Made by a program: the position numbers and the translations under genes. The notes beneath the pieces are model-generated. The model had not been told where the DNA came from. It saw nothing but the letters and a program-made list of their open reading frames with translations, and made no database searches. Positions 2,354 through 57,580 of a stretch of 64,000 nucleotides of DNA are shown one piece after another (within the stretch, counting starts at the first letter, position 1; every line of letters starts with the position of its first letter). Location: contig OZ253580.1 in assembly GCA_965263035.1 (NCBI GenBank), positions 1,392,196-1,456,195 on the forward strand, written 5' to 3'. This DNA is from Acidobacteriota bacterium (GTDB lineage: Bacteria > Acidobacteriota > UBA6911 > RPQK01 > JAJDTT01).

Positions 2354-2476
2354 GGAATAGAGGAAAGCAGGAAAGAGAAAAGCTCCCCCACCGGCCCGGT
2401 CCGGCGGACGCCCGGTAGAAAAAGGGTAGGAGCGCCGGTTTCCAACCGCCGAACTCCGGTGGAGCATGGAGGAATG

Positions 2477-2507
2477 GGCGACTGGAAGTCGCCCCTCCTT
2501 GTTTCTT
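2477..2507 (+). terminator. Putative intrinsic terminator after the glycosidase-like gene.
   Basis: A 7-bp stem GGCGACT-gga-AGTCGCC is followed by the T-rich run CCTCCTTGTTTCTT. Confidence 0.4.
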
Positions 2508-2587
2508 AGAAGAGTGAAGAATGGCGGGTCGTTGACGCGTAGCGGGCCGCGGGCCGGTGGGGAAATTTCTAACGGGATAACGAATCA

Positions 2588-3646
2588 ATGGAATCGAGAG
2601 TTTTTTCGGCCGACGAGTTGAGGGATCTGGCCCGGCGAATCTTCGCCGCCGCCGGCTCCAACGAGCGGGAGGCGCTCAACATCGCCACCCGCCTGGTGAA
2701 AAGCAACCTGGTCGGACACGACTCCCACGGGGTCATTCGGATCCCGCGCTACTGGGAGTGGATCAAGAAGGGCCTGGTCCTGTCCAACCGGAAAGTGACG
2801 TTCGCGTTGGACCGGGGTCCGATTGCGGTGCTCGACGGAAACAGCGGCTTTGGACAGTCGACCGGAGAGCAGACCATGGAAATCGCCGTCGACCGGGCCC
2901 GGCGTCACGGTTGCAGCATGGTGGGACTCCGAAACACGGGACACCTGGGGCGGATCGGCGATTGGCCCGAGATGGCGACCGCCGCGGGAATGCTCAGCCT
3001 GCACTTCGTGAACACCAGCGGAATGGGCAATCTGGTGGCGCCCTACGGCGGCAAGGACCGGCGCCTCTCCGCCAATCCCATCGCCTTCGGCGTTCCTCAG
3101 CGAGAGGGCCCTCCCCTGATCATGGACATGTCCGCCTGCATGATCGCCGAGGGGAAGGTCCGGGTGGCTCTCCACCAAGGCGTGCGAGTCCCCGACGGGT
3201 GCCTCATCGACTCGGAGGGCCGTCCCACCAACGATCCCGAACTCTTCTACCGGCATCCTCCCGGTTCCATACTCCCCATTGCGGGACACAAGGGCTACAT
3301 CCTGAGCTTCATGATCGAAATACTGGCGGGAGCCCTCACCGGCGGATCGTGCACCAATCCCGCCAACGCCCACCGGCTGGCCAACGGAATGTTCACCATC
3401 GTTATCGACCGGAGCTGGTTCGCGGACCGTGACGAGTTCTTCGACGAGGTCGACCGGTACGTCCGGTACGTGAAGAGTGCCCGCACCATCGATCCCGACG
3501 GTGAGATCCTCGTCCCCGGCGAGTTGGAGGTGCGCACGTCGGAGCGGAGAACGCGGGAAGGGATTCCGCTGGCCGGGACCACCATCGGGCAGATCCTCCA
3601 GGTCTGCGAAGAGTTGAATATCGACTCGGGATGGGAAACCGGCTGA
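2588..3646 (+). CDS. Ldh_2 family (malate/L-lactate/sulfolactate-type) NAD(P)H-dependent dehydrogenase.
   Basis: Carries the LVGHDSHGV motif; the length (352 aa) and overall pattern are typical of Ldh_2 family members (AllD/ComC-like). Confidence 0.75.
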   Translation: MESRVFSADELRDLARRIFAAAGSNEREALNIATRLVKSNLVGHDSHGVIRIPRYWEWIKKGLVLSNRKVTFALDRGPIAVLDGNSGFGQSTGEQTMEIAVDRARRHGCSMVGLRNTGHLGRIGDWPEMATAAGMLSLHFVNTSGMGNLVAPYGGKDRRLSANPIAFGVPQREGPPLIMDMSACMIAEGKVRVALHQGVRVPDGCLIDSEGRPTNDPELFYRHPPGSILPIAGHKGYILSFMIEILAGALTGGSCTNPANAHRLANGMFTIVIDRSWFADRDEFFDEVDRYVRYVKSARTIDPDGEILVPGELEVRTSERRTREGIPLAGTTIGQILQVCEELNIDSGWETG

Positions 3647-3685
3647 CCGGACCGGTTCCTTCCTGTCCGCTCCGGTAGATTCGCC

Positions 3686-4606
3686 ATGGGCCTGATGGAT
3701 TGGATCAAGGCAGCCGACTACGAAGCGGCCCTGCCCACCATTTCGAAGCTGCCCCGCACTCTGGCCTACGGCTTGGCCGATTTGCGGGGAAGATTGCTGA
3801 CCTACACGCGCCGGGACTCCTTTGCCTGGGCCTCGCGCAACGTCGAGTCCGTTTTTCCCCACTTCGATGCGGGTGAGCGCCGGCGGATCGTCATCGGCCA
3901 CTACCAGGTCGAATCCCGCGACACGATGGAGGCGTTTTGGTATTCCAAGCCGCTGAGCCATCTCCAATCCTTCGTTCGTTGCACCGGGCTGGACACCCTC
4001 CGGGAAGCCGCATCCTCCGGGAACGGCGTTCTCCTTTTTTCCAGCCACATGGGGAGTACCGGCCTCTTCCTCGTCTTCGCCGGCAAGAGCGGAGTCCCCA
4101 TGAACATCGTCGCACGGTCCATCGAGCCCGAAGACAATCCCCTGCACCCCGCGCTGCTCCGCTACAGCAGGAAGCGGGTCCGTTGGATCGAAACGGCCAT
4201 CGGGCATCCCCTTCTCATAACCGGACGCGGGAACTACTCCCGGCTGGTGGAGAAGCTTCGAGCCGGCGGGGTCATCATGATGCTGATCGATGTCTTGCCC
4301 AACCTGGTCAACCCGAAATACACGACGGAGGTCACGTTCTTCGGCCGGCGGGCCTGGTTCCCCAACGGCATCGCCAGCCTCTTCTTCACCACCGGATCCC
4401 GCCTTTTTCACTGGAGGATCCACAGAAACCAGAAGACGGGATACCAGGAGATCGAGATCTCCGAATTGACCGATTCTTTTCGGCCGGCCGCCGACCGGGC
4501 GCAATTCATGCAAAAGCTGGTGGGACTGCTGGAACAGGACATTCGCCGGTACCCCGATCACTGGCTGAGCTGGGACTCGTTGAGGCACTACTACCGGAAA
4601 CCGTAA
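3686..4606 (+). CDS. LpxL/HtrB-family lipid A (Kdo2-lipid IVA) acyltransferase.
   Basis: Aligns from memory with E. coli LpxL: NVESVFPHFDAGERRRIV ~ NLELCFPEMSEQERRKMV, a HxxxxD-type region SSHMGSTG, and a C-terminal ...RHYYRKP ~ ...RRFKTRP. Confidence 0.6.
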   Translation: MGLMDWIKAADYEAALPTISKLPRTLAYGLADLRGRLLTYTRRDSFAWASRNVESVFPHFDAGERRRIVIGHYQVESRDTMEAFWYSKPLSHLQSFVRCTGLDTLREAASSGNGVLLFSSHMGSTGLFLVFAGKSGVPMNIVARSIEPEDNPLHPALLRYSRKRVRWIETAIGHPLLITGRGNYSRLVEKLRAGGVIMMLIDVLPNLVNPKYTTEVTFFGRRAWFPNGIASLFFTTGSRLFHWRIHRNQKTGYQEIEISELTDSFRPAADRAQFMQKLVGLLEQDIRRYPDHWLSWDSLRHYYRKP

Positions 4607-4723
4607 CGCCAGGAGTCCAATGCGCCGTCCCCGGCTCCATTTCGGGTGTCCCCTTCGACCCGTCTCCCGCGCTTTCCGGAACGAATCGTCCGGCCGGTCC
4701 GTATTTGCTGAGAGACCGGTTCA

Positions 4724-5173
4724 TTGACGGAAAGAGGCACGATGACTCGATGGATGGCCCTGGACGTAGGCTCCAAGCGATGCGGGGTTGCCGTGACCGA
4801 TCCGCTGAAGCTGACGGCGCGTCCACTGCTCACCTTCGAACGGGAGAGCCTGAAGGGGGACGTCGAGAGGCTCATCGGACTCATGCGGGAATACCGGGTG
4901 GAGAGACTGATCGTGGGGCAACCCCGGCATCTCAGTGGCCGGCCCAGCCCCATCGAACAGGCCGTCATTCCCCTGGTGTCCCGATTGCGTGGACAGGCGA
5001 TGGTTCGAGTAGAGTGGATGGACGAACGCCTGTCGACCAAGGAGGCCGAATCGGTCATGCGGGAGCTGGGAATCCCTGAGCACCTGCGGCGACAGAAGAA
5101 GGACGAGTTCGCGGCGGCAGTGATTCTGAAATGGTATCTGGAGGAGAGGGGATCTCCCGGATTCCCCGGGTGA
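4724..5173 (+). CDS. ruvX: Holliday-junction resolvase-like nuclease RuvX/YqgF.
   Basis: LDVGSKRCGVAVTD N-terminal motif; small (~145 aa) RNase H-fold protein. The true start may be the Met at ~4742. Confidence 0.85.
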   Translation: MTERGTMTRWMALDVGSKRCGVAVTDPLKLTARPLLTFERESLKGDVERLIGLMREYRVERLIVGQPRHLSGRPSPIEQAVIPLVSRLRGQAMVRVEWMDERLSTKEAESVMRELGIPEHLRRQKKDEFAAAVILKWYLEERGSPGFPG

Positions 5174-6168
5174 TTCGCGGACTGACGATCGCGATCCTGA
5201 TTCTGGCGGGGAGCGCTCTGGCCGCGGTCAACTGGTGGGAGTCTCGCGTCAGTGAACCTCATCTGGGGCGTTCGACGAAAAACCGGCTTCTGACCGTTCC
5301 CTTCGGGTCGTCGGTGAGAAGCATCGGCCAACTGCTCCAGGGCTCGGACATCATTCGGTCCGACCTCATATTTGCAGCCTATGTCCGCATCAGCGGTCCC
5401 GATCCGCTCCAGGCTGGAGAATACCTTTTCGAGAATCCCATCAGCCTGACCCAAGTGGTGCAGATACTGAGGGAGGGCCGGGTTCACCACTACCGCATCA
5501 CGATCCCTGAAGGATTGACCATGGATGAGGTCATCGGCCGTTTCGTCCAGGAGGGATTGGGACAACAGCACGAGTTGGAGCCTCTGACCGGGCGTACGGA
5601 CCTGCTGGGCGGCCTGGACCCGGAGGCCACGGACCTGGAGGGCTATCTCTTCCCCGACACCTACTATTTCACTCGGTCGGACCAGGAGTTGACGTTGGTC
5701 TCCACACTGGTGACCCGTTTCAGGGAGGTCTGGAACTCCCCGCGGCAGAAGCGCACCGAAGACCTGGGTCTCACCGTTCGGGAGGTGGTGACACTCGCCT
5801 CGCTGATCGAGAAGGAGACGGCTCTCCCTTCGGAGCGGCCTCTGATCTCCGCCGTTTTTCACAACCGGCTCCGGCGAAACATCAAGTTGGATTGCGACCC
5901 CACCGTCATTTACGCCATCCGCAAGACCGGTGAATACGACGGCGTGCTACACCAGAGCGATCTGGCCCTGGACTCTCCCTACAACACCTATCTCTACGCG
6001 GGCCTCCCTCCCGGCCCCATCGCCAACCCCGGGACCGCTTCCATCGATGCGGCACTGAGTCCGGCGCCGGTCAGGCACCTCTACTTCGTATCCAAGAACG
6101 ACGGCAGCCACGTCTTCTCCACCAGCTACCGGGAACACCGGCGGGCCGTACGCCGGTACCAGCGCTGA
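5131..6168 (+). CDS. mltG: Endolytic murein transglycosylase MltG (YceG family).
   Basis: N-terminal TM segment and the conserved C-terminal blocks DPTVIYA and YNTYLYAGLPPGPIANPG. It sits directly after ruvX, as in many bacteria. Confidence 0.85.
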   Translation: MVSGGEGISRIPRVIRGLTIAILILAGSALAAVNWWESRVSEPHLGRSTKNRLLTVPFGSSVRSIGQLLQGSDIIRSDLIFAAYVRISGPDPLQAGEYLFENPISLTQVVQILREGRVHHYRITIPEGLTMDEVIGRFVQEGLGQQHELEPLTGRTDLLGGLDPEATDLEGYLFPDTYYFTRSDQELTLVSTLVTRFREVWNSPRQKRTEDLGLTVREVVTLASLIEKETALPSERPLISAVFHNRLRRNIKLDCDPTVIYAIRKTGEYDGVLHQSDLALDSPYNTYLYAGLPPGPIANPGTASIDAALSPAPVRHLYFVSKNDGSHVFSTSYREHRRAVRRYQR

Positions 6169-11176: not shown

Positions 11177-11197
11177 GATCAGGCCGGAGGGCTAGCT

Positions 11198-13662
11198 CTG
11201 CCCTATACCCACAAATAGTGCTGGACAAACAAGAATGCCTGTCGTAGTCTCCACGACATGGCAGTTCAGAACCAGATCAAGCGCACCTTGAGCCGAGAGT
11301 TGGATCGTTTGCACGCCGTGATGAGGCGGGAGAAGTTCGCCCACCGGACGGCGCTGGCGGACCGGGTCTGCTCGGAGTTTGGATTTCACGATGCCCGAGG
11401 GCGGGCGCAACGGAGCGGCTGCCTGAAGGCGCTCCGGGAGCTGGAGGCGGGCGGACGGATTCGTCTGCCGACGCCGCGACGGCGGGTGAAACATTGCGGG
11501 CCCCGAGGACTGGGCCGTGCGGTGCCGGAGCCGGTCGGGGTGCCCGAGACGGTGGACGGCGTGCGGGAGCTGGAGTTGATCGCGGTGGAGACGGGTCCGC
11601 AACGAGCGCTCTGGAACGAGTTGATGGCGCGAGAGCATCCACGGGGCGCGGGGCCGTTGGTGGGTGCTCAACTACGCTATCTGGTGGGCTCGGCGCACGG
11701 CTGGCTGGGGGGCTTGGGGTTCGGGGCGGCGGCGTTGCGGTTGCGGGACCGGGACCGCTGGATCGGATGGGATGAGGAACAACGCCGGGCGCACCTGCAC
11801 CGGGTGGTGGGGCTGAGCCGGTTTCTGATCCGTCCGTCAGTGAGGTGTCGTAATCTGGCCTCCCGGGTGCTGGGGGAGGTGTTGCGGCGGCTGGGTCCGG
11901 AGTTCCAGGCGCGCTACGGCTACCGTCCCTGGCTGGTGGAGACCTTCGTGGAGACGGCTCGCCACGATGGGGCCAGTTTGCGCGCCACGAACTGGAGGGT
12001 TCTGGGGCAGACGCAGGGTCGAGGCCGGCAAGATCGGGCGCACCGGGGTGCGGAGACGAGCAAGGCGATCTATGGGTATGAGTTGTGCCGGGATTGGCGT
12101 CGGCGGTTGGGGGTGGGACCGGCGCCGAGGCGGGGAGTGGAACCGATGTCGGAGGGCGAGGGACTGGAGGGAGCGGGCTGGGCTCAGCAGGAGTTGGGCG
12201 GGGCGCCGCTGGGAGACCGGCGCTTGAGTCGGCGACTGGTGGAGAGTGCGCACCGTCAGGCGCAGGAGCCGGGGCGGGCGTTCACGGGAGTGGCGCGGGG
12301 CGATCCGGCGGCGGTCAAGGGATACTACCGGCTGATCGACCAGCCGGAAGCCTCGGCGGTGACGGTGTCCAACATCCTGGCCCCGCACCGGGAGCGGACC
12401 CGGCAGCGGATGCAGGGGCAGCGGACGGTGCTGTGCATCCAGGACGGGAGCGATCTGAACTTCACGCGGCACGGCCGGTGTGAGGGACTGGGGGTGATCG
12501 GGCGCAACCAGACGGGAGCGACGGCGCGGGGACTGCATCTGCACGCGACGCTGGTGGTGAGTGAGACGGGGCTGCCGCTGGGGGTGTTGCGGGCGAAGCT
12601 GGACGCGCCGAAGCCGGGACCGGTGGCCACGCGGAAAAAGAAGAAGACGTATCGCTGGATCGAGGGACTTCGGGACTGCGCCGAGGTGTCGCGGTCCCTC
12701 GACGGGGTGCGGGTGGTCAGCGTGGTGGACCGGGAGGCGGATTTTTTCGCACTGTTCGCCGAGCAACGAGCGTCTCCGGAGGTGGAGTTGCTGGTGCGTG
12801 CGAAGCAGGATCGGGTGCTGAAGCGGAAGACCCGGGCGAAGGCGGCCGGGAAAAGCGGGGATCCGGACCAGGAGCAGAAGCGGAAGCTGTTCGGGCGCCT
12901 GCGATCGGCGCCGGTGCGGGCCCGGATGCTGCTGGAGGTGAAGCGTCAGAGTGCGCGGATCAAGGCCAGCAAGCAGGCGGCCCGCCCGCGGCGGCTGGCG
13001 CGGGTGGCACGGATGGAACTGCGCTACGAGACCCTGACGATTCCGGCGCCGCGCGGGAACCCAACCGGCATCCCGTCGCTGAGACTGTCGGTGGTGCACG
13101 CGCGGGAGGTCGCGCCGCCGGCGCAGGGGAAGCGCCTGGAATGGTTCCTGCTCACCACCCTGCCGGTGACCGATGTCGAGACGGCGCAGCAACTGCTGAG
13201 ATGGTATGCCCTGCGCTGGCGGGTGGAGGATTATTTCCGGGTGCTCAAGACCGGATGCCGGGTGCAACAGCTCCAGCACCAAACCGCCGAACGTCTGAAA
13301 CGGGCCATCGCCATGCACGCCGTCATCGCCTGGCGGATCATGCTGATGACGCTGTTGGGGCGAGAGGACCCGGATCTGCCGGCGCAGTTGCTGTTTTCCG
13401 ATCTGGAAATCCGGGTCCTGGGGGCGTTTGCCGCGTCGCGACGATACCCACCGCCGGAAGACCTGGGGGCGGCCGTGCTCGTGCTGGCCCGCCTGGGAGG
13501 ATATCTGGCTCGTAAACACGACCCCCCACCCGGGCATCAACTGCTGTGGCAGGGCTACGTCACGCTTTACGGCATGTGTCTGGGCTTCGCTTTACGAGAA
13601 GAAACATGAACGAAACCAGACCCAGGCTAATGTGCCCTGTGCAATATGTGGGTAAAGGGCAG
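11198..13662 (+). mobile_element. IS4/Tn5-like insertion sequence, copy 1 (the divergent copy).
   Basis: Imperfect terminal inverted repeats CTGCCCTATACCCACAAATAGTGC ... GCAATATGTGGGTAAAGGGCAG. An 8-bp direct repeat GGCTAGCT lies at 11190-11197 and 13663-13670. It contains the 783-aa transposase ORF. Confidence 0.9.
11258..13609 (+). CDS. Fusion protein: N-terminal ~300-aa domain (DUF4338/DruA-like, from memory) + Tn5-type DDE transposase.
   Basis: The C-terminal ~470 aa match Tn5 Tnp in the DNA-binding region and the DDE triad (IQDGSD, VVDREADFF, RWRVEDYFRVLKTG). The N-terminal 300 aa have no transposase counterpart. Confidence 0.85.
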   Translation: MAVQNQIKRTLSRELDRLHAVMRREKFAHRTALADRVCSEFGFHDARGRAQRSGCLKALRELEAGGRIRLPTPRRRVKHCGPRGLGRAVPEPVGVPETVDGVRELELIAVETGPQRALWNELMAREHPRGAGPLVGAQLRYLVGSAHGWLGGLGFGAAALRLRDRDRWIGWDEEQRRAHLHRVVGLSRFLIRPSVRCRNLASRVLGEVLRRLGPEFQARYGYRPWLVETFVETARHDGASLRATNWRVLGQTQGRGRQDRAHRGAETSKAIYGYELCRDWRRRLGVGPAPRRGVEPMSEGEGLEGAGWAQQELGGAPLGDRRLSRRLVESAHRQAQEPGRAFTGVARGDPAAVKGYYRLIDQPEASAVTVSNILAPHRERTRQRMQGQRTVLCIQDGSDLNFTRHGRCEGLGVIGRNQTGATARGLHLHATLVVSETGLPLGVLRAKLDAPKPGPVATRKKKKTYRWIEGLRDCAEVSRSLDGVRVVSVVDREADFFALFAEQRASPEVELLVRAKQDRVLKRKTRAKAAGKSGDPDQEQKRKLFGRLRSAPVRARMLLEVKRQSARIKASKQAARPRRLARVARMELRYETLTIPAPRGNPTGIPSLRLSVVHAREVAPPAQGKRLEWFLLTTLPVTDVETAQQLLRWYALRWRVEDYFRVLKTGCRVQQLQHQTAERLKRAIAMHAVIAWRIMLMTLLGREDPDLPAQLLFSDLEIRVLGAFAASRRYPPPEDLGAAVLVLARLGGYLARKHDPPPGHQLLWQGYVTLYGMCLGFALREET

Positions 13663-13664
13663 GG

Positions 13665-15104
13665 CTAGCTCGCGCCGCGGCCCCAGACTACGGCCGGTAT
13701 GGTCTTGAGCAGAATCCAGAGATCGAGCTTCAAGGACCACTGGTCGATGTACTGGAGATCCAGCTTCATCCATTCCTGAAAGTCCAGCTCGTTCCGGCCG
13801 GAGATCTGCCAGAGACAGGTGATGCCCGGCTTGACGCTCAGGCGCCGCCGCTGGCTCCGGGAATAGTGCCGGACCTCCTCGGGGAGCGGCGCCCGGGGGC
13901 CCACCAGGCTCATCTCGCCTCTCAACACGTTTGCCAGTTGCGGCAACTCGTCGATGCTGTACCTGCGCAGAATGCGTCCCAAGGACGTCACGCGGGGATC
14001 GTTGCGCATCTTGAACACCGGACCGTCCATCTCGTTGAGATGCCGGAGTTCCCGGAGCTGGTCCTCGGCCCCTTCGACCATGGTGCGAAACTTGACCAGC
14101 CGGAACTCCCGGCCGTAGAGCCCGCGCCGAACCTGACGATAGAAGACCGATCCGGGTGAGGTGAACTTGATCAGAGCCATGATCAGGAGCATGAAGGGGG
14201 ACGCCAGCGCCAGCAGAGCCGACGCCAGGACACAATCCATGATCCGCTTGACCACCAGGGCCACGCTCTGGTCCGGAGCCATGGAGAAGGTGATGAGGGG
14301 AAGCTCCTCCAGGAAATCGAGCGATAGCCTGGAGGCGGATGCGGGGAAGAAGTCGGCGGCGATCCGGGTCCGGATTCCGAGCTCCTCACACAGTTTCAGA
14401 ACCTCCTGAAACTGGCGGTTGTCCTCGGGCTGAGCGTCCACGAATATGATCTCGTCCACGATCAGCCGGTCCATGACCAAGTCGGGAAGATCCTTGAGCG
14501 ATCCCACAATCCGTATCCCGGGGGCCTCGGTCCAGGTTTCTCCAGGCGCCAGATGTCCGACGACGTGGTAGCCCCACTTTCGGAACCGGACCAGCACCTC
14601 GCTGACATGCTGGGCCCGGGAGTCGATTCCCACGACCAGGATCTTGACCTGATGGTGCTCGTTGACGTTCCGGGTCCTCAAGATCCAATGCAGCAGAATG
14701 CGGTTCAAGCCCAGAAAGAGACCGGAGAGTCCGATGAAATTGAAGAAAACGGGCCGGCTCACATCCAGGTCGAACACGAAGACGATGAAACCCACGGCAA
14801 GACCGGCGGCGCAGACGAAGCGGCCGATGCGGAACAGGTGCTGGGAGGCGGAGACCTGGTAGAAGCGAGAGTATTGTTGGGTCATCCGGAGGATGGGAAT
14901 CCAAATCGGCAACACGGCCAGCAGATAGACCAGGTAACGGGAATAGGGCAGCAGAACCGGATGGAATGCGGGCGCGATCAAGGCCGGCGCCAATTCCACC
15001 AGCAAGGATCGGGAGAAATAGGCCAGGGTCAAGGCCAGAAAGGCGACGGCGATGTCCGCCGCCTGAAGGAGGTTGCCGTAGACTTGAGACTGGCGATCGA
15101 ACAT
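13665..15104 (-). CDS. Polyprenyl-phosphate sugar phosphotransferase (WcaJ/EpsL-like bacterial sugar transferase, exopolysaccharide priming).
   Basis: N-terminal TM helices plus the C-terminal Bac_transf blocks KFRTM, DELPQL and SLVGPRP. Its stop codon lies inside the CTAG target duplication of IS copy 1. Confidence 0.85.
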   Translation of the reverse strand: MFDRQSQVYGNLLQAADIAVAFLALTLAYFSRSLLVELAPALIAPAFHPVLLPYSRYLVYLLAVLPIWIPILRMTQQYSRFYQVSASQHLFRIGRFVCAAGLAVGFIVFVFDLDVSRPVFFNFIGLSGLFLGLNRILLHWILRTRNVNEHHQVKILVVGIDSRAQHVSEVLVRFRKWGYHVVGHLAPGETWTEAPGIRIVGSLKDLPDLVMDRLIVDEIIFVDAQPEDNRQFQEVLKLCEELGIRTRIAADFFPASASRLSLDFLEELPLITFSMAPDQSVALVVKRIMDCVLASALLALASPFMLLIMALIKFTSPGSVFYRQVRRGLYGREFRLVKFRTMVEGAEDQLRELRHLNEMDGPVFKMRNDPRVTSLGRILRRYSIDELPQLANVLRGEMSLVGPRAPLPEEVRHYSRSQRRRLSVKPGITCLWQISGRNELDFQEWMKLDLQYIDQWSLKLDLWILLKTIPAVVWGRGAS

Positions 15105-24130: not shown

Positions 24131-25726
24131 ATGGGGACCGTGGACCGGCTCACCACCCGGGACTGCGGACTCCCCAGCCTGCTGTTGATGGAAAACGCCG
24201 GGCTGAACCTGTATCAGGTCCTAAAATCCCACTTCGGGGAACGGCTTGCCAGCCGCTCCACCGTGATTCTCTGCGGCAAAGGGAACAACGGCGGAGACGG
24301 TCTGGTCCTGGCGCGCCAATTGGCGCGCCGCGAATCTTCCCCGACGGTGGTCCTGCTCTGCAGACCCGGGCAGCTGCGGGGAGACGCCGCCGTCCAGTTG
24401 AAGGCGTACCGGAAATCCGGTGGAGAGGTGGTGTCCGTCACCTCACGGGAGGAGTGGACGAAGGTTGCGCCCATCCTCGGCAGCTGCCGGATCTTGGTGG
24501 ACGCCCTCCTGGGAACCGGGCTCGGACGTCCCGTAACCGGACTGCTCGCAGAGGTGGTTCGGGACGTCAACGGCAGCGGCGCCTTCGTGCTGGCCGTGGA
24601 CATCCCGACGGGTACCCCCTCCGACGGCCTCCGGCCTATCGGGCCCTCGGTCCGGGCTCACGCCACCGTCACCTTCACGGCCCCCAAGATCGCCCACATT
24701 CTTCACCAGGAGCCGGAGACGTTCGGACAGATCTACGTCACTCCCATCGGGACGCCCCTCCAGGTGCTGGATACACCGGAACACTTTCTGAACCTGATGA
24801 TGCCTGCCCGGATCCGGGCGGTCCTGCCGGCCCGAAAGGCGTTCTCCCACAAGGGCACATTCGGGCATGTGGCGGTCATTGCGGGGAGCCGGGGCAAGAC
24901 CGGGGCCGGCGCCCTGGCCTCCCGAGCCGCGTTGAGATCCGGGTCCGGCCTGGTGACGGGCTTGGCCCCCGACGCCGTCCAACCACTGATGGCCTCCTTC
25001 CAGCCTGAGATCATGACGGAAGGGGTGCCGTCCACGCCCGCTGGAACCTTGGCCTCGTCCGGAATCGATCGCATTCTGGAACTATTGGAGGGCAAGGACG
25101 CCGCCGGCCTGGGGCCGGGCCTGAGCACGGAGAAGGAAACCGTCGACGTGGTTCGCCGGCTGACGCGGGAGGCCGAGGTTCCCCTGGTCCTGGATGCCGA
25201 CGCCTTGAACGCCTATGCCGGCCGGGCCCACGAGTTGGTCAACCTGAAGGGGCAACCCCTCGTCATCACTCCCCACCCGGGCGAGTTTGCCCGCCTGACG
25301 GCCCATTCCATTCCGCAAATTACGGAAAACGGGATCTCCATCGCCCGCGAGTTCGCCCGGAACCGGAATCTCTGGCTCGTGCTCAAGGGGTTCCGGACCC
25401 TGGTGGCGTCGCCGGACGGCCAAGTCTATGCCTGTCCGCTGGGAAACCCGGGAATGGCCACCGCAGGAAGCGGCGACGTCCTTACGGGCGTGATCACCTC
25501 TTTCCTGGGCCAGTATCGGGCCCAGGCCCGCGTCTCTCCGCCGCAGACCACCGACGCCGTCGTCACCGCCGTCTACCTCCATTCCCTGGCCGGCGATCTG
25601 GCGGCCCAAACGCGGGGGATGGACTCGCTGGCGGCCACAGACATCATCGATCACCTGGGATCGGCCTTCCTCCAGCTGCGCGGCCGTGGAGGGCGGCACA
25701 GCGACCCGGTGGGAAATGCGGGCTAG
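24131..25726 (+). CDS. nnr: Bifunctional NAD(P)H-hydrate repair enzyme (epimerase + ADP-dependent dehydratase).
   Basis: YjeF-N motif ILCGKGNNGGDGLVLARQL and the C-terminal carbohydrate-kinase-like domain with GSGDVLTGVI. Confidence 0.85.
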   Translation: MGTVDRLTTRDCGLPSLLLMENAGLNLYQVLKSHFGERLASRSTVILCGKGNNGGDGLVLARQLARRESSPTVVLLCRPGQLRGDAAVQLKAYRKSGGEVVSVTSREEWTKVAPILGSCRILVDALLGTGLGRPVTGLLAEVVRDVNGSGAFVLAVDIPTGTPSDGLRPIGPSVRAHATVTFTAPKIAHILHQEPETFGQIYVTPIGTPLQVLDTPEHFLNLMMPARIRAVLPARKAFSHKGTFGHVAVIAGSRGKTGAGALASRAALRSGSGLVTGLAPDAVQPLMASFQPEIMTEGVPSTPAGTLASSGIDRILELLEGKDAAGLGPGLSTEKETVDVVRRLTREAEVPLVLDADALNAYAGRAHELVNLKGQPLVITPHPGEFARLTAHSIPQITENGISIAREFARNRNLWLVLKGFRTLVASPDGQVYACPLGNPGMATAGSGDVLTGVITSFLGQYRAQARVSPPQTTDAVVTAVYLHSLAGDLAAQTRGMDSLAATDIIDHLGSAFLQLRGRGGRHSDPVGNAG

Positions 25727-26177
25727 CCAGATCCTTCGCTCCAGCAGCGAAGAGGAGACACGGCGCATCGGCCTCAGGCTGGGTGAGACGCTGCACCCTC
25801 CGCGTGTGGTCCTCCTCTCTGGAGAGCTGGGAGCCGGCAAGACGGTGTTCACCCAGGCCTTGGCAGCCGGTCTGGAGGTCGAAGATCTCTCCCTGGTCCG
25901 AAGTCCCTCCTTCACCCTGATCAACGAGTACCCGTCGGCTCGCGGTCCCATCTACCATGTCGACCTGTACCGCCTGGAGGGAGCGGACGACTTCCATTCC
26001 ATCGGTATGGAGGAGATCCTGGAGCGGGAAGCCGTCGTCATCATCGAATGGGGCGAAAAGCTCGACTTGCCCGTGGAAGACCCCGTCCGTATCCGAATCC
26101 TGGTAGACCCGGCGAGCGACGAGCGCCTGCTGGAAATCGACGTCGGAGAGGAAAGAGGAAAGAGGAAAGAGAGATAA
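25716..26177 (+). CDS. tsaE: tRNA t6A37 threonylcarbamoyladenosine biosynthesis protein TsaE.
   Basis: P-loop GELGAGKT and ~150 aa length. The nnr-tsaE adjacency is conserved in many bacteria. Confidence 0.8.
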   Translation: MRASQILRSSSEEETRRIGLRLGETLHPPRVVLLSGELGAGKTVFTQALAAGLEVEDLSLVRSPSFTLINEYPSARGPIYHVDLYRLEGADDFHSIGMEEILEREAVVIIEWGEKLDLPVEDPVRIRILVDPASDERLLEIDVGEERGKRKER

Positions 26178-29186: not shown

Positions 29187-29353
29187 CTAGGAGGCTGCGC
29201 CGCAGAAATTGATCTACTGCGAAAGCGGTAGAATCGGTCCATATTTCCTCGATTTCTCGGCGAATAGAACAACTATGCACCTCCAAATCGAGAAAATCTG
29301 GCCTCGATTCCCCACTTTCTCGCTACGATCATTTCTACCGCGCAGACTCCTAG
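29187..29353 (+). repeat. MITE-like ~165-bp repeat, copy A.
   Basis: Same sequence as 50846-51012. Its reverse complement is at 35103-35268. Terminal inverted repeats GAGGCTGCGCCGCAGAAAT ... ATTTCTACCGCGCAGACTC. A CTAG tetranucleotide bounds both ends. Confidence 0.85.
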
Positions 29354-29355
29354 CC

Positions 29356-31817
29356 CTGCTCTATACCCACAAATAGTGCTGGACAAACAAGAATGCCTGT
29401 CGTAGTCTTCACGACATGGTAGTTCAGAACCAGATCAAGCGCACCTTGAGCCGAGAGTTGGATCGTTTGCACGCCGTGATGAGGCGGGAGAAGTTCGCCC
29501 ACCGGACGGCGCTGGCGGACCGGGTCTGCTCGGAGTTTGGATTTCACGATGCCCGAGGGCGGGCGCAACGGAGCGGCTGCCTGAAGGCGCTCCGGGAGCT
29601 GGAGGCGGGCGGACGGATTCGTCTGCCGACGCCGCGACGGCGGGTGAAACATTGCGGGCCCCGAGGACTGGGCCGTGCGGTGCCGGAGCCGGTGGAAGTG
29701 CCCGAGACGGTGGACGGCGTGCGGGAGCTGGAGTTGATTCTGGTGGAGACGGGTCCGCAACGAGCGCTCTGGAACGAGTTGATGGCGCGAGAGCATCCAC
29801 GGGGCGCGGGGCCGTTGGTGGGTGCTCAACTACGCTATCTGGTGGGCTCGGCCCACGGCTGGCTGGGGGGCTTGGGGTTCGGGGCGGCGGCGTTGCGGTT
29901 GCGGGACCGGGACCGCTGGATCGGATGGGATGAGGAACAACGCCGGGCGCACCTGCACCGGGTGGTGGGGCTGAGCCGGTTTCTGATCCGTCCGTCAGTG
30001 AGGTGTCGTAATCTGGCCTCCCGGGTGCTGGGGGAGGTGTTGCGGCGGCTGGGTCCGGAGTTCCAGGCGCGCTACGGCTACCGTCCCTGGCTGGTGGAGA
30101 CCTTCGTGGAGACGGCTCGCCACGATGGGGCCAGTTTGCGCGCCACGAACTGGAGGGTTCTGGGGAAGACGCAGGGTCGAGGCCGGCAAGATCGGGCGCA
30201 CCGGGGTGCGGAGACGAGCAAGGCGATCTATGGGTATGAGTTGTGCCGGGATTGGCGTCGGCGGTTGGGGGTGGGACCGGCGCCGAGGCGGGGAGTGGAA
30301 CCGATGTCGGAGGGCGAGGGACTGGAGGGAGAGGGCTGGGCTCAGCAGGAGTTGGGCGGGGCGCCGCTGGGAGACCGGCGCTTGAGTCGGCGACTGGTGG
30401 AGAGTGCGCACCGTCAGGCGCAGGAGCCGGGGCGGGCGTTCACGGGAGTGGCGCGGGGCGATCCGGCGGCGGTCAAGGGATACTACCGGCTGATCGACCA
30501 GCCGGAAGCCTCGGCGGTGACGGTGTCCAACATCCTGGCCCCGCACCGGGAGCGGACCCGGCAGCGGATGCAGGGGCAGCGGACGGTGCTGTGCATCCAG
30601 GACGGGAGCGATCTGAACTTCACGCGGCACGGCCGGTGTGAGGGACTGGGGGTGATCGGGCGCAACCAGACGGGAGCGACGGCGCGGGGACTGCATCTGC
30701 ACGCGACGCTGGTGGTGAGTGAGACGGGGCTGCCGCTGGGGGTGTTGCGGGCGAAGCTGGACGCGCCGAAGCCGGGACCGGTGGCCACGCGGAAAAAGAA
30801 GAAGACGTATCGCTGGATCGAGGGACTTCGGGACTGCGCCGAGGTGTCGCGGTCCCTCGACGGGGTGCGGGTGGTCAGCGTGGTGGACCGGGAGGCGGAT
30901 TTTTTCGCACTGTTCGCCGAGCAACGAGCGTCTCCGGAGGTGGAGTTGCTGGTGCGTGCGAAGCAGGATCGGGTGCTGAAGAGGAAGACCCCGGCGAAGG
31001 CGGCCGGGAAAAGCGCGGATCCGGACCCGGAGCAGAAGCGGAAGCTGTTCGGGCGCCTGCGATCGGCGCCGGTGCGGGCCCGGATGCTGCTGGAGGTGAA
31101 GCGTCAGAGTGCGCGGATCAAGGCCAGCAAGCAGGCGGCCCGCCCGCGGCGGCTGGCGCGGGTGGCTCGGATGGAACTGCGCTACGAGACCCTGACGATT
31201 CCGGCGCCGCGCGGGAACCCAACCGGCATCCCGTCGCTGAGACTGTCGGTGGTGCACGCGCGGGAGGTCGCGCCGCCGGCGCAGGGGAAGCGCCTGGAAT
31301 GGTTCCTGCTCACCACCCTGCCGGTGACCGATGTCGAGACGGCGCAGCAACTGCTGAGATGGTATGCGCTGCGCTGGCGGGTGGAGGATTATTTCCGGGT
31401 GCTCAAGACCGGATGCCGGGTACAACAGCTCCAGCACCAAACCGCCGAACGTCTGAAACGGGCCATCGCCATGCACGCCGTCATCGCCTGGCGGATCATG
31501 CTGATGACGCTGTTGGGGCGAGAGGACCCGGACCTGCCGGCGCAATTGTTGTTCTCGGATCTGGAAATTCGGGTCCTGGGGGCGTTTGCCGCGTCGCGAG
31601 GATTCCCAGCGCCGGAAGACCTGGGGGCGGCCGTGCTCGTGCTGGCCCGCCTGGGAGGATATCTGGCTCGTAAACACGACTCCCCACCTGGGCATCAACT
31701 GATGTGGCAGGGCTACGTCACGCTCTACGGCATGTGTCTGGGCTTCGCTTTACGAGAAGAAACATGAATGAAACCGGACGGCTAATTTGCCCTGTGCAAT
31801 ATGTGGGTAAAGGGCAG
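29356..31817 (+). mobile_element. IS4/Tn5-like insertion sequence, copy 2.
   Basis: 8-bp TSD TCCTAGCC at 29348-29355 and 31818-31825. The left IR carries one mismatch (CTGCTC). Confidence 0.9.
29416..31767 (+). CDS. Fusion transposase (DUF4338-like N-domain + Tn5-type DDE transposase), copy 2.
   Basis: 783 aa, ~99% identical to copies 3 and 4. Confidence 0.85.
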   Translation: MVVQNQIKRTLSRELDRLHAVMRREKFAHRTALADRVCSEFGFHDARGRAQRSGCLKALRELEAGGRIRLPTPRRRVKHCGPRGLGRAVPEPVEVPETVDGVRELELILVETGPQRALWNELMAREHPRGAGPLVGAQLRYLVGSAHGWLGGLGFGAAALRLRDRDRWIGWDEEQRRAHLHRVVGLSRFLIRPSVRCRNLASRVLGEVLRRLGPEFQARYGYRPWLVETFVETARHDGASLRATNWRVLGKTQGRGRQDRAHRGAETSKAIYGYELCRDWRRRLGVGPAPRRGVEPMSEGEGLEGEGWAQQELGGAPLGDRRLSRRLVESAHRQAQEPGRAFTGVARGDPAAVKGYYRLIDQPEASAVTVSNILAPHRERTRQRMQGQRTVLCIQDGSDLNFTRHGRCEGLGVIGRNQTGATARGLHLHATLVVSETGLPLGVLRAKLDAPKPGPVATRKKKKTYRWIEGLRDCAEVSRSLDGVRVVSVVDREADFFALFAEQRASPEVELLVRAKQDRVLKRKTPAKAAGKSADPDPEQKRKLFGRLRSAPVRARMLLEVKRQSARIKASKQAARPRRLARVARMELRYETLTIPAPRGNPTGIPSLRLSVVHAREVAPPAQGKRLEWFLLTTLPVTDVETAQQLLRWYALRWRVEDYFRVLKTGCRVQQLQHQTAERLKRAIAMHAVIAWRIMLMTLLGREDPDLPAQLLFSDLEIRVLGAFAASRGFPAPEDLGAAVLVLARLGGYLARKHDSPPGHQLMWQGYVTLYGMCLGFALREET

Positions 31818-31819
31818 TC

Positions 31820-32500
31820 CTAGCCACCCGATCTCGATTTTCGGCCCAGGTGAAGACATGCGATCCCGGCCGAGAGGGTTCGGTGGTGGATCTCGCGGAA
31901 CCCCGCCCTCTCCAGCAACCGGTCCAGATCCTCGGGCGCGAGGAACTGTCGCACCGACCGGGAGAGATAGTCGTAGGCTGGTCCGTGTCCCGAGATCCAA
32001 CCGCCGAGTCGAGGCAGGATCCGCACGAAATAGAACAGGTACAGCGACCTGAACAGCGGCAAAGTGGGGAGCGTAAACTCCAGGATGGCCAACACGCCTC
32101 GGGGTCGGAGCACCCGATGCATTTCGGCCAGACCCTGGCGGTAGCTCTCCAGATTCCTCAATCCGAACGCGATGCTGACGGCGTCGAAGGACCGGTCCGG
32201 AAAGGGGAGTCTCAGCGCGTCCCCTTCGGCGAACGCAACACGACGGCCGTTTGCGGAACGGGACGCCTTCTTCTTACCCAAAACCAGCATGGGATGAGAG
32301 AAGTCACACGCCACCACCGAACCCACATTGGAGAGCTCCAGGGCCAGGTCCCCGGTTCCCGTGCACAGGTCCAATATCCGCGGTTCCGACGGCAGCCGGC
32401 GTTCCAGCTCGCGCCTCGTCACCCGCCTCCAGCGCCGGTCCACGGACAGGGAGAGAAGACGGTTGGCCCGGTCGTATCGGGGGGCAATGGCGCCGAACAT
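31820..32500 (-). CDS. ubiE: UbiE/MenG-family demethylmenaquinone/ubiquinone C-methyltransferase.
   Basis: MFGAIAPRYDRANRLLSL plus the SAM-binding motif LDLCTGTGD. The start is uncertain; the ORF extends upstream in frame. Its stop codon lies inside the TSD of IS copy 2. Confidence 0.7.
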   Translation of the reverse strand: MFGAIAPRYDRANRLLSLSVDRRWRRVTRRELERRLPSEPRILDLCTGTGDLALELSNVGSVVACDFSHPMLVLGKKKASRSANGRRVAFAEGDALRLPFPDRSFDAVSIAFGLRNLESYRQGLAEMHRVLRPRGVLAILEFTLPTLPLFRSLYLFYFVRILPRLGGWISGHGPAYDYLSRSVRQFLAPEDLDRLLERAGFREIHHRTLSAGIACLHLGRKSRSGG

Positions 32501-35102: not shown

Positions 35103-35268
35103 CTAGAGTCTGCGCGGTAGAAATGATCGTAGCGAGAAAGTGGGGAATCGAGGCCAGATTTTCTCGATTTGGAGGTGCATAGTTGTTCTATTCGCCGAGA
35201 AATCGAGGAAATATGGACCGATTCTACCGCTTTCGCAGTAGATCGATTTCTGCGGCGCAGGCTCCTAG
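35103..35268 (-). repeat. MITE-like repeat, copy B (inverted orientation).
   Basis: Reverse complement of copy A. CTAG at both ends (35103-35106 and 35265-35268). Confidence 0.85.
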
Positions 35269-35287: not shown

Positions 35288-35611
35288 CTATTGCCGGAAG
35301 AGTTCGTATGCCTCAGGGAGGAAAATCCGGGCGGTCATGATCTCCGTCATGGGGATGACGACCCGAAAATCTCCATACGCCAATCCGGATGACCCCTCAA
35401 GGGACCTCCATATCATAGGCGCATAGTTGGTCTTGACTACCAACTCCTGTTTGTCTTTATCGCGGTAGCCGCTAGCCATCGGGACGATCTTAATATCGCC
35501 CTCACCCTGGCTTTCGATTCCGCTCTTGAGGGGGAAGCCAATGTATACCTTTCTGCTCTTCAGCGAGATCTCAACCAGCCTTTGATTCTCGATGGATTCC
35601 GCGACGAGCAA
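35288..35611 (-). CDS. Hypothetical protein in a lower-GC islet.
   Basis: 107-aa ORF with no recognisable family. Local GC (~52%) is well below the surrounding sequence. Confidence 0.3.
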   Translation of the reverse strand: MLVAESIENQRLVEISLKSRKVYIGFPLKSGIESQGEGDIKIVPMASGYRDKDKQELVVKTNYAPMIWRSLEGSSGLAYGDFRVVIPMTEIMTARIFLPEAYELFRQ

Positions 35612-48298: not shown

Positions 48299-48381
48299 CT
48301 TTGGCGAAGGCCCTGCGCAGCCATTGCCGCAATCTCCGTCCAGAGGGTCCGCTCGCCGCACCGTAGAGGGGCTGGCTAGGA

Positions 48382-50843
48382 CTGCCCTATACCCACAAAT
48401 AGTGCTGGACAAACAAGAATGCCTGTCGTAGTCTTCACGACATGGTAGTTCAGAACCAGATCAAGCGCACCTTGAGCCGAGAGTTGGATCGTTTGCACGC
48501 CGTGATGAGGCGGGAGAAGTTCGCCCACCGGACGGCGCTGGCGGACCGGGTCTGCTCGGAGTTTGGATTTCACGATGCCCGAGGGCGGGCGCAACGGAGC
48601 GGCTGCCTGAAGGCGCTCCGGGAGCTGGAGGCGGGCGGACGGATTCGTCTGCCGACGCCGCGACGGCGGGTGAACCATTGCGGGCCCCGAGGACTGGGCC
48701 GTGCGGTGCCGGAGCCGGTCGGGGTGCCCGAGACGGTGGACGGCGTGCGGGAGCTGGAGTTGATTCTGGTGGAGACGGGTCCGCAACGAGCGCTCTGGAA
48801 CGAGTTGATGGCGCGAGAGCATCCACGGGGCGCGGGGCCGTTGGTGGGTGCTCAACTACGCTATCTGGTGGGCTCGGCCCACGGCTGGCTGGGGGGCTTG
48901 GGGTTCGGGGCGGCGGCGTTGCGGTTGCGGGACCGGGACCGCTGGATCGGATGGGATGAGGAACAACGCCGGGCGCACCTGCACCGGGTGGTGGGGCTGA
49001 GCCGGTTTCTGATCCGTCCGTCAGTGAGGTGTCGTAATCTGGCCTCCCGGGTGCTGGGGGAGGTGTTGCGGCGGCTGGGTCCGGAGTTCCAGGCGCGCTA
49101 CGGCTACCGTCCCTGGCTGGTGGAGACCTTCGTGGAGACGGCTCGCCACGATGGGGCCAGTTTGCGCGCCACGAACTGGAGGGTTCTGGGGCAGACGCAG
49201 GGTCGAGGCCGGCAAGATCGGGCGCACCGGGGTGCGGAGACGAGCAAGGCGATCTATGGGTATGAGTTGTGCCGGGATTGGCGGCGGCGGTTGGGGGTGG
49301 GACCGGCGCCGAGGCGGGGAGTGGAACCGATGTCGGAGGGCGAGGGACTGGAGGGAGCGGGCTGGGCTCAGCAGGAGTTGGGCGGGGCGCCGCTGGGAGA
49401 CCGGCGCTTGAGTCGGCGACTGGTGGAGAGTGCGCACCGACAGGCGCAGGAGCCGGGGCGGGCGTTCACGGGAGTGGCGCGGGGGGATTCTGCGGCGGTC
49501 AAGGGATACTACCGGCTGATCGACCAGCCGGAAGCCTCGGCGGTGACGGTGTCCAACATCCTGGCCCCGCACCGGGAGCGGACCCGGCAGCGGATGCAGG
49601 GGCAGCGGACGGTGCTGTGCATCCAGGACGGGAGCGATCTGAACTTCACGCGGCACGGCCGGTGTGAGGGACTGGGAGTGATCGGGCGCAACCAGACGGG
49701 AGCGACGGCGCGGGGACTGCATCTGCACGCGACGCTGGTGGTGAGTGAGACGGGGCTGCCGCTGGGGGTGTTGCGGGCGAAGCTGGACGCGCCGAAGCCG
49801 GGACCGGTGGCCACGCGGAAAAAGAAGAAGACGTATCGCTGGATCGAGGGACTTCGGGACTGCGCCGAGGTGTCGCGGTCCCTCGACGGGGTGCGGGTGG
49901 TCAGCGTGGTGGACCGGGAGGCGGATTTTTTCGCACTGTTCGCCGAGCAACGAGCGTCTCCGGAGGTGGAGTTGCTGGTGCGTGCGAAGCAGGATCGGGT
50001 GCTGAAGAGGAAGACCCCGGCGAAGGCGGCCGGGAAAAGCGCGGATCCGGACCCGGAGCAGAAGCGGAAGCTGTTCGGGCGCCTGCGATCGGCGCCGGTG
50101 CGGGCCCGGATGCTGCTGGAGGTGAAGCGTCAGAGTGCGCGGATCAAGGCCAGCAAGCAGGCGGCCCGCCCGCGGCGGCTGGCGCGGGTGGCTCGGATGG
50201 AACTGCGCTACGAGACCCTGACGATTCCGGCGCCGCGCGGGAACCCAACCGGCATCCCGTCGCTGAGACTGTCGGTGGTGCACGCGCGGGAGGTCGCGCC
50301 GCCGGCGCAGGGGAAGCGCCTGGAATGGTTCCTGCTCACCACCCTGCCGGTGACCGATGTCGAGACGGCGCAGCAACTGCTGAGATGGTATGCGCTGCGC
50401 TGGCGGGTGGAGGATTATTTCCGGGTGCTCAAGACCGGATGCCGGGTACAACAGCTCCAGCACCAAACCGCCGAACGTCTGAAACGGGCCATCGCCATGC
50501 ACGCCGTCATCGCCTGGCGGATCATGCTGATGACGCTGTTGGGGCGAGAGGACCCGGACCTGCCGGCGCAATTGTTGTTTTCCGATCTGGAAATCCGGGT
50601 CCTGGGGGCGTTTGCCGCGTCGCGAGGATTCCCAGCGCCGGAAGACCTGGGGGCGGCCGTGCTCGTGCTGGCCCGCCTGGGAGGATATCTGGCTCGTAAA
50701 CACGACTCCCCACCTGGGCATCAACTGATGTGGCAGGGCTACGTCACGCTCTACGGCATGTGTCTGGGCTTCGCTTTACGAGAAGAAACATGAATGAAAC
50801 CGGACGGCTAATTTGCCCTGTGCAATATGTGGGTAAAGGGCAG
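48382..50843 (+). mobile_element. IS4/Tn5-like insertion sequence, copy 3.
   Basis: 8-bp TSD GGCTAGGA at 48374-48381 and 50844-50851. The right TSD overlaps the start of MITE copy C. Confidence 0.9.
48442..50793 (+). CDS. Fusion transposase, copy 3.
   Basis: 783 aa. It differs from copy 4 at ~2 positions. Confidence 0.85.
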   Translation: MVVQNQIKRTLSRELDRLHAVMRREKFAHRTALADRVCSEFGFHDARGRAQRSGCLKALRELEAGGRIRLPTPRRRVNHCGPRGLGRAVPEPVGVPETVDGVRELELILVETGPQRALWNELMAREHPRGAGPLVGAQLRYLVGSAHGWLGGLGFGAAALRLRDRDRWIGWDEEQRRAHLHRVVGLSRFLIRPSVRCRNLASRVLGEVLRRLGPEFQARYGYRPWLVETFVETARHDGASLRATNWRVLGQTQGRGRQDRAHRGAETSKAIYGYELCRDWRRRLGVGPAPRRGVEPMSEGEGLEGAGWAQQELGGAPLGDRRLSRRLVESAHRQAQEPGRAFTGVARGDSAAVKGYYRLIDQPEASAVTVSNILAPHRERTRQRMQGQRTVLCIQDGSDLNFTRHGRCEGLGVIGRNQTGATARGLHLHATLVVSETGLPLGVLRAKLDAPKPGPVATRKKKKTYRWIEGLRDCAEVSRSLDGVRVVSVVDREADFFALFAEQRASPEVELLVRAKQDRVLKRKTPAKAAGKSADPDPEQKRKLFGRLRSAPVRARMLLEVKRQSARIKASKQAARPRRLARVARMELRYETLTIPAPRGNPTGIPSLRLSVVHAREVAPPAQGKRLEWFLLTTLPVTDVETAQQLLRWYALRWRVEDYFRVLKTGCRVQQLQHQTAERLKRAIAMHAVIAWRIMLMTLLGREDPDLPAQLLFSDLEIRVLGAFAASRGFPAPEDLGAAVLVLARLGGYLARKHDSPPGHQLMWQGYVTLYGMCLGFALREET

Positions 50844-50845
50844 GG

Positions 50846-56358: not shown

Positions 56359-56491
56359 CGCCGACCCGTCTGCGGCGGCTGCGGGCCAAGCAGACCGAGA
56401 GGAGACTGTCGCCGCTCCCCGTCAGTCTCCTTCGTGCGATTCACAGCAGTTGACACGCACTCGACGCCACAAGACTTCCGGTTCTACCTCC

Positions 56492-56520: not shown

Positions 56521-56528
56521 CACGGACC

Positions 56529-57559: not shown

Positions 57560-57580
57560 AATCATTACGATTCTTTCATG

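Follow-up and report, generated by a model that had tools for sequence, protein, structure and literature searches.

Tn5-type transposases are commonly cited as the classic case of near-random integration, and mutagenesis and tagmentation rely heavily on them. In Tn5 and IS10 a transposase dimer holds both ends of the element, excises it via hairpins and captures a bent target; the two 3'-OH ends are then joined to opposite strands at a fixed stagger, and gap repair leaves a duplication. We have analyzed an insertion sequence (IS) with a Tn5-type transposase that is present in four copies in a 64-kb stretch of an Acidobacteriota genome (contig OZ253580.1; this whole stretch is the window hereafter). 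All four insertions are centred on the tetranucleotide CTAG, and homologues in other genomes share this target almost without exception. The element belongs to a branch with strong site selectivity within a transposon family that normally shows none.

The closest described systems are the elements of the IS50 subgroup, which share the end consensus CW------Y---CA-A--W-, generate direct repeats of 8-9 bp and measure 1350-1550 bp (PMC2266710, Table 1). Like them, our element has a single open reading frame (ORF), ends that start with 5'-CTG and fit the subgroup consensus, and a duplication, 8 bp, that lies within the published range. In its transposase the C-terminal 475 aa can be aligned with the full length of the Tn5 transposase and include the DDE and YREK residues as well as the DNA-binding and dimerisation domains. 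It differs in length (2.46 kb compared to 1.35-1.55 kb), in an extra N-terminus of about 300 aa that contains a GNAT-like DUF4338 domain, and in duplicating 8 bp where Tn5 duplicates 9 bp. The target differs as well, with a near-invariant CTAG core replacing the weak AGNTYWRANCT motif of Tn5 (PMC2577343, Table 1).

A second comparison is with Tn10, for which a target motif GNNGCTNAGCNNC and a 9-bp duplication are described (PMC2577343, Table 1). IS10/Tn10 also belongs to the IS4 family and also uses a symmetric target, and in its hotspot NGCTNAGCN a GCT half-site begins one base inside each cut. The pattern found here, N-(G/C)-C-T followed by A-G-(G/C)-N, corresponds to the register of NGCTNAGCN with the central base removed, so that the half-sites abut (8 bp) instead of being separated by a one-base spacer (9 bp). 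The published targets of Tn5 and IS10 are both degenerate palindromes of 9 bp. The transposase described here is nonetheless Tn5-like and not IS10-like, and its natural insertions suggest a core far stricter than the hotspot preference of Tn10. The tetranucleotide itself is shared with unrelated elements: IS630 inserts at the TA within CTAG (PMC2577343, Table 1), and ISPst12 and ISPa16 of the IS5 family insert at CTAG or TTAG (PMC3735179). Those groups make 2-bp (TA) or 4-bp duplications with DDE_3 or IS5-type transposases, in contrast to the 8 bp and the Tn5-type transposase described here. In a literature search, which did not cover ISfinder, we found neither this clade nor any IS4/Tn5-like element with a CTAG-centred 8-bp duplication described.

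CTAG-centred duplications and empty sites

The four copies are all on the + strand, measure 2462-2465 bp and have the ends CTGCCC...GGGCAG. We defined their boundaries from a multiple alignment that included the flanks, with CTGCCC(T/C)... on the left and ...GGGTAAAGGGCAG on the right. Directly outside each IS body is a perfect 8-bp direct repeat, identical within a copy and different between copies. At the ninth base outward left and right are unequal in copies 2-4, and thus the duplication is 8 bp and not 9 bp.

Copy 1 (11198-13662, 2465 bp) carries a transposase gene at 11258-13609 (783 aa), and its terminal inverted repeats, about 22-24 bp long, are imperfect (CTGCCCTATACCCACAAATAGTGC and, reverse-complemented, CTGCCCTTTACCCACATATTGCAC). 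Its duplication, GGCTAGCT, occupies 11190-11197 on the left and 13663-13670 on the right, where it overlaps the TAG stop of a 479-aa gene (13665-15104, - strand). The remaining copies are each 2462 bp long. Copy 2 (29356-31817; transposase ORF 29416-31767) is flanked by TCCTAGCC at 29348-29355 and 31818-31825, and copy 3 (48382-50843; transposase ORF 48442-50793) by GGCTAGGA at 48374-48381 and 50844-50851. The left duplication of copy 2 is at the same time the right-flank CTAG of a miniature inverted-repeat transposable element (MITE), and the right duplication of copy 3 is the left-flank CTAG of another copy of that MITE. Copy 4 (59262-61723; transposase ORF 59322-61673) lies within hsdS between two copies of CCCTAGCC (59254-59261 and 61724-61731). 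A preliminary description, made from the sequence of the window, had claimed 8-bp direct repeats with an exactly central CTAG at all four copies; the sequences and positions agree with ours, and the span that it gave, 11190-13670, corresponds to copy 1 plus both of its duplications.

It had also suggested a comparison with empty sites in related strains. We looked up the neighbouring genes by exact protein sequence in ENA assemblies and compared the same chromosomal regions. Empty-site alleles exist for four of the four window insertions, and in each case identical flanks enclose one 8-mer and nothing else: a single GGCTAGCT at the copy-1 site (loci L081 and L082), a single TCCTAGCC plus the MITE at the copy-2 site (L086, L088 and L089), a single GGCTAGGA, with its CTAG, at the copy-3 site (L097 and L099) and a single CCCTAGCC at the copy-4 site (L102), where the Methylase_S reading frame is uninterrupted. 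Because the empty sites hold one complete 8-mer, the repeats are true duplications of a pre-existing CTAG and not element sequence. The existence of empty alleles in related strains indicates recent IS activity.

The copy-3 target is polymorphic, reading either GGCTAGGA or GGCCAGGA. The five strain alleles with GGCCAGGA (L091, L092, L093, L095 and L098) contain no IS; insertion-bearing alleles all read CTAG, while none of the five CCAG alleles has an insertion. These natural GGCCAGGA alleles predict a loss of targeting at this site.

Further insertions of the same IS species were found outside the window. One strain (L089) has an additional copy, with duplication GGCTAGGA, at a CTAG that is empty in the window (35265). 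A related metagenome-assembled genome (MAG), CBDCJH01 (L001-L004), adds three CTAG-centred insertions and one exception, GCCAAGCC (L001). This brings the IS species to eight CTAG-centred sites out of nine distinct insertion sites. An exact-sequence look-up of the window transposase returned the same locus only, with zero new insertion sites. We also observed a 2492-bp variant of the IS, 27 bp longer and with a called ORF of 695 aa, at the copy-1 site of another strain (L084:5816-8307).

Target sequence across the family

A scan of one genome per species yielded 334 relatives, of which we examined the best 80 (49-99 % protein identity). These loci come from Acidobacteriota, Proteobacteria, Verrucomicrobia, Planctomycetota, Bacteroidota, Spirochaetia, Gemmatimonadota and others, and include one Methanomassiliicoccales MAG. 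The inverted repeats would otherwise extend into the palindromic CTAG flank, and the ends were therefore anchored on CTGCCC...GGGCAG (family end consensus CTGCCCtTTaCCC...). CTAG occupies flank positions 3-6 in 133 of the 146 evaluable flanks, and at 58 of the 65 loci that have both flanks it is central on the left as well as on the right. Among the 33 unique sites with a perfect 8-bp duplication, 32 contain CTAG and 12 are exactly GGCTAGCC, the commonest sequence.

A target logo from relatives in 48 genomes, weighted equally, as had been proposed in the preliminary description, gives frequencies of.96 for C3,.99 for T4,.97 for A5 and.97 for G6. At position 2, G has a frequency of.68 and C of.27; at position 7, C has.60 and G.37. 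G1 and C8 are weaker. The target thus extends beyond CTAG, with G or C at positions 2 and 7 in about 95 % of cases, and can be written as SCTAGS (S being G or C) with the consensus GGCTAGCC.

As a replicate we scanned metagenome contigs for a 16-mer at the IS end and kept those ends that have transposase coding sequence inside. CTAG is in register at 38 of the 42 ends verified in this way, the other four reading CTCG, CAAG, CTAA and GTAG. Without this filter only 58 % of the 16-mer matches have CTAG, a low fraction explained by the many matches without homology to the transposase or with an interior too short to be checked. Some of the unfiltered matches are probably chance matches, and at least two are MITE-like derivatives. 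MITE-like derivatives at L121:432-692 and L132:4619-4886 measure 261-268 bp, retain both family ends (CTGCCCTTTACCCATAAGTC...GACTTATGGGTAAAGGGCAG) and have flanks that contain CTAG, partly decayed.

For comparison we turned to relatives that lack the N-terminal domain. The plasmid collection contains zero homologues with this domain; the best matches there cover the Tn5-like part only, at 31-35 % identity. Thirteen such domain-less relatives were fetched from plasmids as controls, ten of them with clear inverted repeats and a duplication. All ten duplications are 9 bp (two are ambiguous, 9-10 bp) and none contains CTAG. The CTAG-centred 8-bp duplication therefore separates the clade with the N-terminal domain from its nearest ordinary Tn5-like relatives. 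This bears on an earlier statement that a duplication of 8 bp falls short of the 9-12 bp usual among Tn5/IS4 relatives: it holds for the domain-less relatives, with their 9 bp, and fails for the IS50 subgroup, whose published range is 8-9 bp (PMC2266710).

Several observations weigh against a strict rule. Two perfect 8-bp duplications deviate from CTAG, namely the CBDCJH01 exception GCCAAGCC, which reads CAAG, and GGGTAGCA, with GTAG, in the isolate Thioalkalivibrio nitratireducens DSM 14787 (L117); both are still 8 bp and one base off CTAG. The four one-mismatch metagenome sites point the same way. In about half of the loci with both flanks the outer positions of the duplication do not match. 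Plausible causes are decay, recombination between copies, or flanks from short-read MAG assembly or consensus, many of these loci being on short MAG contigs that end at or near the IS. Three copies in the Holophagaceae MAG CAVRKY01 (L053, L056 and L078, ~2395-5260) are inserted in a palindrome, CGCCCTGGTTCGTCGCCGCCGGC-NNN-GCCGGCGGCGACGAACCAGGGCG, resembling repetitive extragenic palindromic (REP) sequences. They are 2761 bp long, contain an internal REP-like unit and are flanked by 9-mers, GGCWNWGCC, that form inverted and not direct repeats. Finally, the specificity is read from natural insertions that have survived, and the sequence is compatible with either the Tn5-like core or the N-terminal module contacting the CTAG bases.

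From these observations we conclude that the CTAG specificity is strong but not absolute. Copies lacking a central CTAG, which the preliminary description had named as evidence against its rule, do occur as rare one-base exceptions, and the rule survives them. Its broader interpretation, an IS that selects NNCTAGNN and makes an 8-bp duplication in a CTAG-poor genome, is supported by the empty sites, the conservation across the family and the metagenome replicate.

Two further observations concern individual family members. A simple 8- or 9-bp duplication was considered for the three Holophagaceae copies and rejected as irreconcilable with the inverted GGCWNWGCC flanks; in L053 the right end is tandemly duplicated. 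The Methanomassiliicoccales MAG (L030) contains a full-length family member with CTAG flanks on a contig of 2524 bp, which is about the size of the IS, and the archaeal binning may be unreliable.

Landing sites and alternative explanations

The scarcity of CTAG in many bacterial genomes is well known. The preliminary description had pointed to it, and the window bears it out: we counted 20 CTAG in 64 kb, where mononucleotide frequencies would predict 215 and a second-order Markov estimate 70. With the exception of TTAA, CTAG is the most depleted palindromic tetramer in the window. Eight of the 20 are IS duplications and six are flanks of three MITE copies. There were about 16 pre-insertion CTAG in about 54 kb of non-IS DNA, or ~3e-4 per position, and by our arithmetic from these counts the probability of four out of four insertions falling in the exact CTAG register by chance is ~1e-14.

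The CTAG occupied by the IS in the window are all SCTAGS. Combining the window list with the strain alleles, SCTAGS sites are occupied in some strain in 5 of 8 cases compared to 0 of 8 for other CTAG (hypergeometric p = 0.013). Empty SCTAGS sites in the window are the perfect consensus GGCTAGCC at 25721-25728, CGCTAGCC at 35470-35477 and CGCTAGCA at 51069-51076.

The roughly 10-fold depletion of CTAG in the host would leave the IS few landing sites. Many of these lie at the edges of CTAG-flanked MITEs or at TAG stop codons, which would concentrate insertions in a few mostly harmless positions. CTAG scarcity may in this way shape the ecology of the IS, in that the few landing sites are common to unrelated CTAG-using elements and become hotspots of nested insertion.

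The MITE is about 165 bp long with 19-bp inverted repeats GAG(C/T)CTGCGCSGYAGAAAT. Including the two flanking CTAG, its copies are at 29187-29353 (+ strand; body 29191-29349), 35103-35268 (- strand) and 50846-51012 (+ strand); the CTAG at 35265, IS-occupied in L089, belongs to the second. All three are bounded by CTAG on both sides, as previously described, and one of the six flanks has lost a junction base, so that the last C of the element doubles as the C of CTAG. The ends of the MITE are unlike those of the IS, and for this reason the MITE is probably mobilized by another enzyme, of the IS5 or IS630 type. If it duplicates CTAG on insertion, as its CTAG flanks suggest, the MITE would create new sites for the IS.

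Four of the nine distinct insertions of the IS species (W2, W3, L003 and L089) adjoin a MITE-flanking CTAG. One could therefore suppose that the IS recognizes repeated structures such as MITE ends or REP-like palindromes and that CTAG is incidental. There is precedent in IS1397 and ISKpn1, which insert into the palindromes of REP sequences and bacterial interspersed mosaic elements (BIME). Outside the window many flanks lie in the palindromes AATGCGGGCTAGCCCGCATT (CBDCUP01) and TCAGSCGGCTAGCCGSCTGA (CAWAUR01), and the Holophagaceae copies are found in a REP-like hairpin. We nevertheless consider this explanation improbable. No such repeat is present at copy 1, in unique intergenic DNA, or at copy 4, in the hsdS coding sequence, and the 48 genomes have the SCTAGS core alone in common, with no conservation beyond the 8-mer. 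A simpler view is that CTAG-flanked repeats are the principal source of a rare tetranucleotide, providing 6 of the 20 CTAG in the window.

Even less likely is random Tn5-like insertion followed by purifying selection, with only the insertions at CTAG surviving, in intergenic DNA, stop codons and junk repeats. Such selection would fit the position of three of the four window insertions, which are intergenic or at a stop codon, and the presence of TAG on both strands of CTAG. Selection cannot, however, explain a base-exact register, with CTAG at positions 3-6 in all but one of the 33 perfect duplications. Other intergenic DNA is plentiful yet unused, copy 4 is inside the hsdS coding sequence, and the domain-less relatives, under comparable selection against disruptive insertions, do not show CTAG.

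The idea that CTAG is part of the element, with true termini ...CTAGNN outside CTGCCC or a duplication of only 2-4 bp, draws on the CTAG at both ends of nearly every copy and on outer positions (1, 2, 7 and 8) that differ between left and right at many loci, and can be dismissed with near certainty, given that the empty alleles of all four window copies hold one complete 8-mer including CTAG and that the outer bases match within a copy and differ between copies.

The selection of a short palindromic target by the IS thus remains the favoured explanation. Some further observations were made on the repeats at which relatives of the IS are found. Many insertions in the MAG CBDCUP01 (L050-L080) are central in the short repeated palindrome AATGCGGGCTAGCCCGCATT, and insertions in CAWAUR01 (L054, L060 and L072) are central in TCAGSCGGCTAGCCGSCTGA; in both genomes more CTAG are clustered within about 15 bp of several insertion sites. 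In one strain (L094:4560-5770) a 1.2-kb IS630-like element, with DDE_3 and helix-turn-helix (HTH) genes, has made a TA duplication inside the very CTAG used by window copy 3. This suggests that two unrelated IS families compete for the same rare site.

The transposase, its added domain and the neighbouring genes

The single ORF of 783 aa encodes a helical N-terminus, a GNAT-like domain of the DUF4338/DruA type (about residues 100-285) and a full Tn5-type transposase (305-783), so that some 300 aa precede the Tn5-like part. A Pfam scan finds PF14236 (DruA/DUF4338) at residues 103-261 with E=4e-31, and PF14706 (Tnp_DNA_bind), PF01609 (DDE_Tnp_1) and PF02281 (Dimer_Tnp_Tn5) each above cut-off. 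The best NCBIfam match is the IS4 model NF033590 (302 bits for a cut-off of 160). The Tn5 transposase (1MUS) aligns over its entire length with residues 305-778 (E=3e-29), and in this alignment D396, D491 and E657 correspond to the catalytic D97, D188 and E326 of Tn5. The YREK motif is likewise present as Y650, R653, E657 and K664 (Tn5 Y319, R322, E326 and K333) with the spacing Y-(2)-R-(3)-E-(6)-K. The DDE and YREK residues are invariant or nearly so across 50 homologues. In an AlphaFold2 model (mean predicted local distance difference test score, pLDDT, 72.6) the C-terminal part is Tn5-like, with a template modelling (TM) score of 0.75 to 1MUH and 4DM0.

A sequence search of the PDB with the N-terminal domain gave zero matches, and its structural relatives came from a fold search only. 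Residues 100-285 are predicted to form an α/β domain whose best solved matches are GNAT acetyltransferases (RimI, PaiA) at E ~1e-3. This agrees with the published assignment of DUF4338 to the GNAT fold (PMC10853773).

On this basis the element is very probably an active cut-and-paste IS of the IS4 family, related to the IS50/Tn5 subgroup, that chooses a short palindrome as its target and cuts the two strands 8 bp apart. It shares with the subgroup the DDE and YREK residues, the Tn5 DNA-binding and dimerisation domains, the single ORF, the ends and repeats in the 8-9 bp range; the left inverted repeat, CTGCCCTATACCCACAAAT, fits every specified position of the consensus CW------Y---CA-A--W-. It falls outside the subgroup in size, with 2462-2465 bp here and 2399-2465 bp in most relatives, because the N-terminal extension of about 300 aa makes it about 1 kb longer. 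Other assignments fit less well. IS630/Tc1-mariner elements would have a TA duplication and a DDE_3 transposase rather than an 8-bp duplication and a Tn5-type transposase, and the IS5 family a 4-bp YTAR/CTAG duplication, whereas the duplication is 8 bp and the best NCBIfam match is an IS4 model.

The likeness to DruA of the anti-phage Druantia system concerns the PF14236 match and the predicted GNAT-like fold. Here, by contrast, the domain is fused to a transposase, and the IS, having one ORF only, contains no druB-E genes. The PADLOC DruA1 model matches the transposase marginally (E=0.004 over 48 residues), which argues for a domain of the DUF4338 superfamily and not for a Druantia component. 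No DruB-D gene or large DruE-type helicase is present in the gene calls flanking the four insertion sites, among which no Druantia-directed scan was made; the only helicase-type gene there is hsdR of a type I restriction-modification operon.

We propose that the transposase selects the palindromic target 5'-(G)(G/C)CTAG(G/C)(C)-3' and would join the two 3' ends of the IS to target strands 8 bp apart, symmetrically about the central TA step. Gap repair would then yield the 8-bp duplication. In a two-fold symmetric dimer each subunit would read one half-site, (G)(G/C)CT, counted from its own cut, with base-specific contacts provided by either the Tn5-like core or the added N-terminal module.

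The N-terminal 300 aa alone match 6255 cluster representatives at E<=1e-3 and 529 at E<=1e-30. The lengths of the matching proteins cluster at about 740-810 aa, corresponding to full-length proteins with a transposase, and at 290-500 aa, corresponding to fragments or stand-alone proteins. Readable loci in the domain-bearing clades have CTAG and 8 bp; the exceptions are one lineage of Holophagaceae and two genomes in which only one flank could be read. We tentatively raise the possibility that the DUF4338/GNAT-like module, together with the helical segment that precedes it, turns a promiscuous Tn5-type transposase into a nearly site-specific one, by reading SCTAGS or by changing the spacing of the active sites from 9 to 8 bp; the evidence for such a role is a correlation at the level of the clade. 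If this were true, a widespread clade, with thousands of members across bacterial phyla and a copy in an archaeal MAG, would constitute a natural sequence-targeted Tn5 family, and the DUF4338 of Druantia DruA could serve as a module for recognizing DNA. With its near-invariant palindromic target of 6-8 bp and its shifted stagger of 8 bp, this large natural clade offers a comparative handle on how Tn5-class transposases read their targets, and a possible starting point for site-restricted Tn5 tools.

The transposase start codon of copy 1 was searched for an RNA hairpin (11236-11262), and the structure found there is no better than that of shuffled sequence (z = -0.29). The duplication of the same copy holds the TAG stop of the downstream sugar-transferase gene (Bac_transf; 13665-15104, - strand), and since the stop codon is regenerated by the duplication, this gene remains intact.

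Copy 4 lies in a type I restriction-modification operon that extends over 54247-64000 of the window and consists of hsdM (54247-56358), a PIN gene, AbiEii (58177-59127), the split hsdS, and hsdR from about 62967. The insertion cuts hsdS into an N-terminal stub (59124-59282) and a remainder (61735-62970). The element thereby inactivates the specificity gene of a type I restriction system, which has consequences for the phenotype within the host population. In the strain with the empty copy-4 site (L102), a different IS (DDE_Tnp_1_4) interrupts hsdS further downstream.

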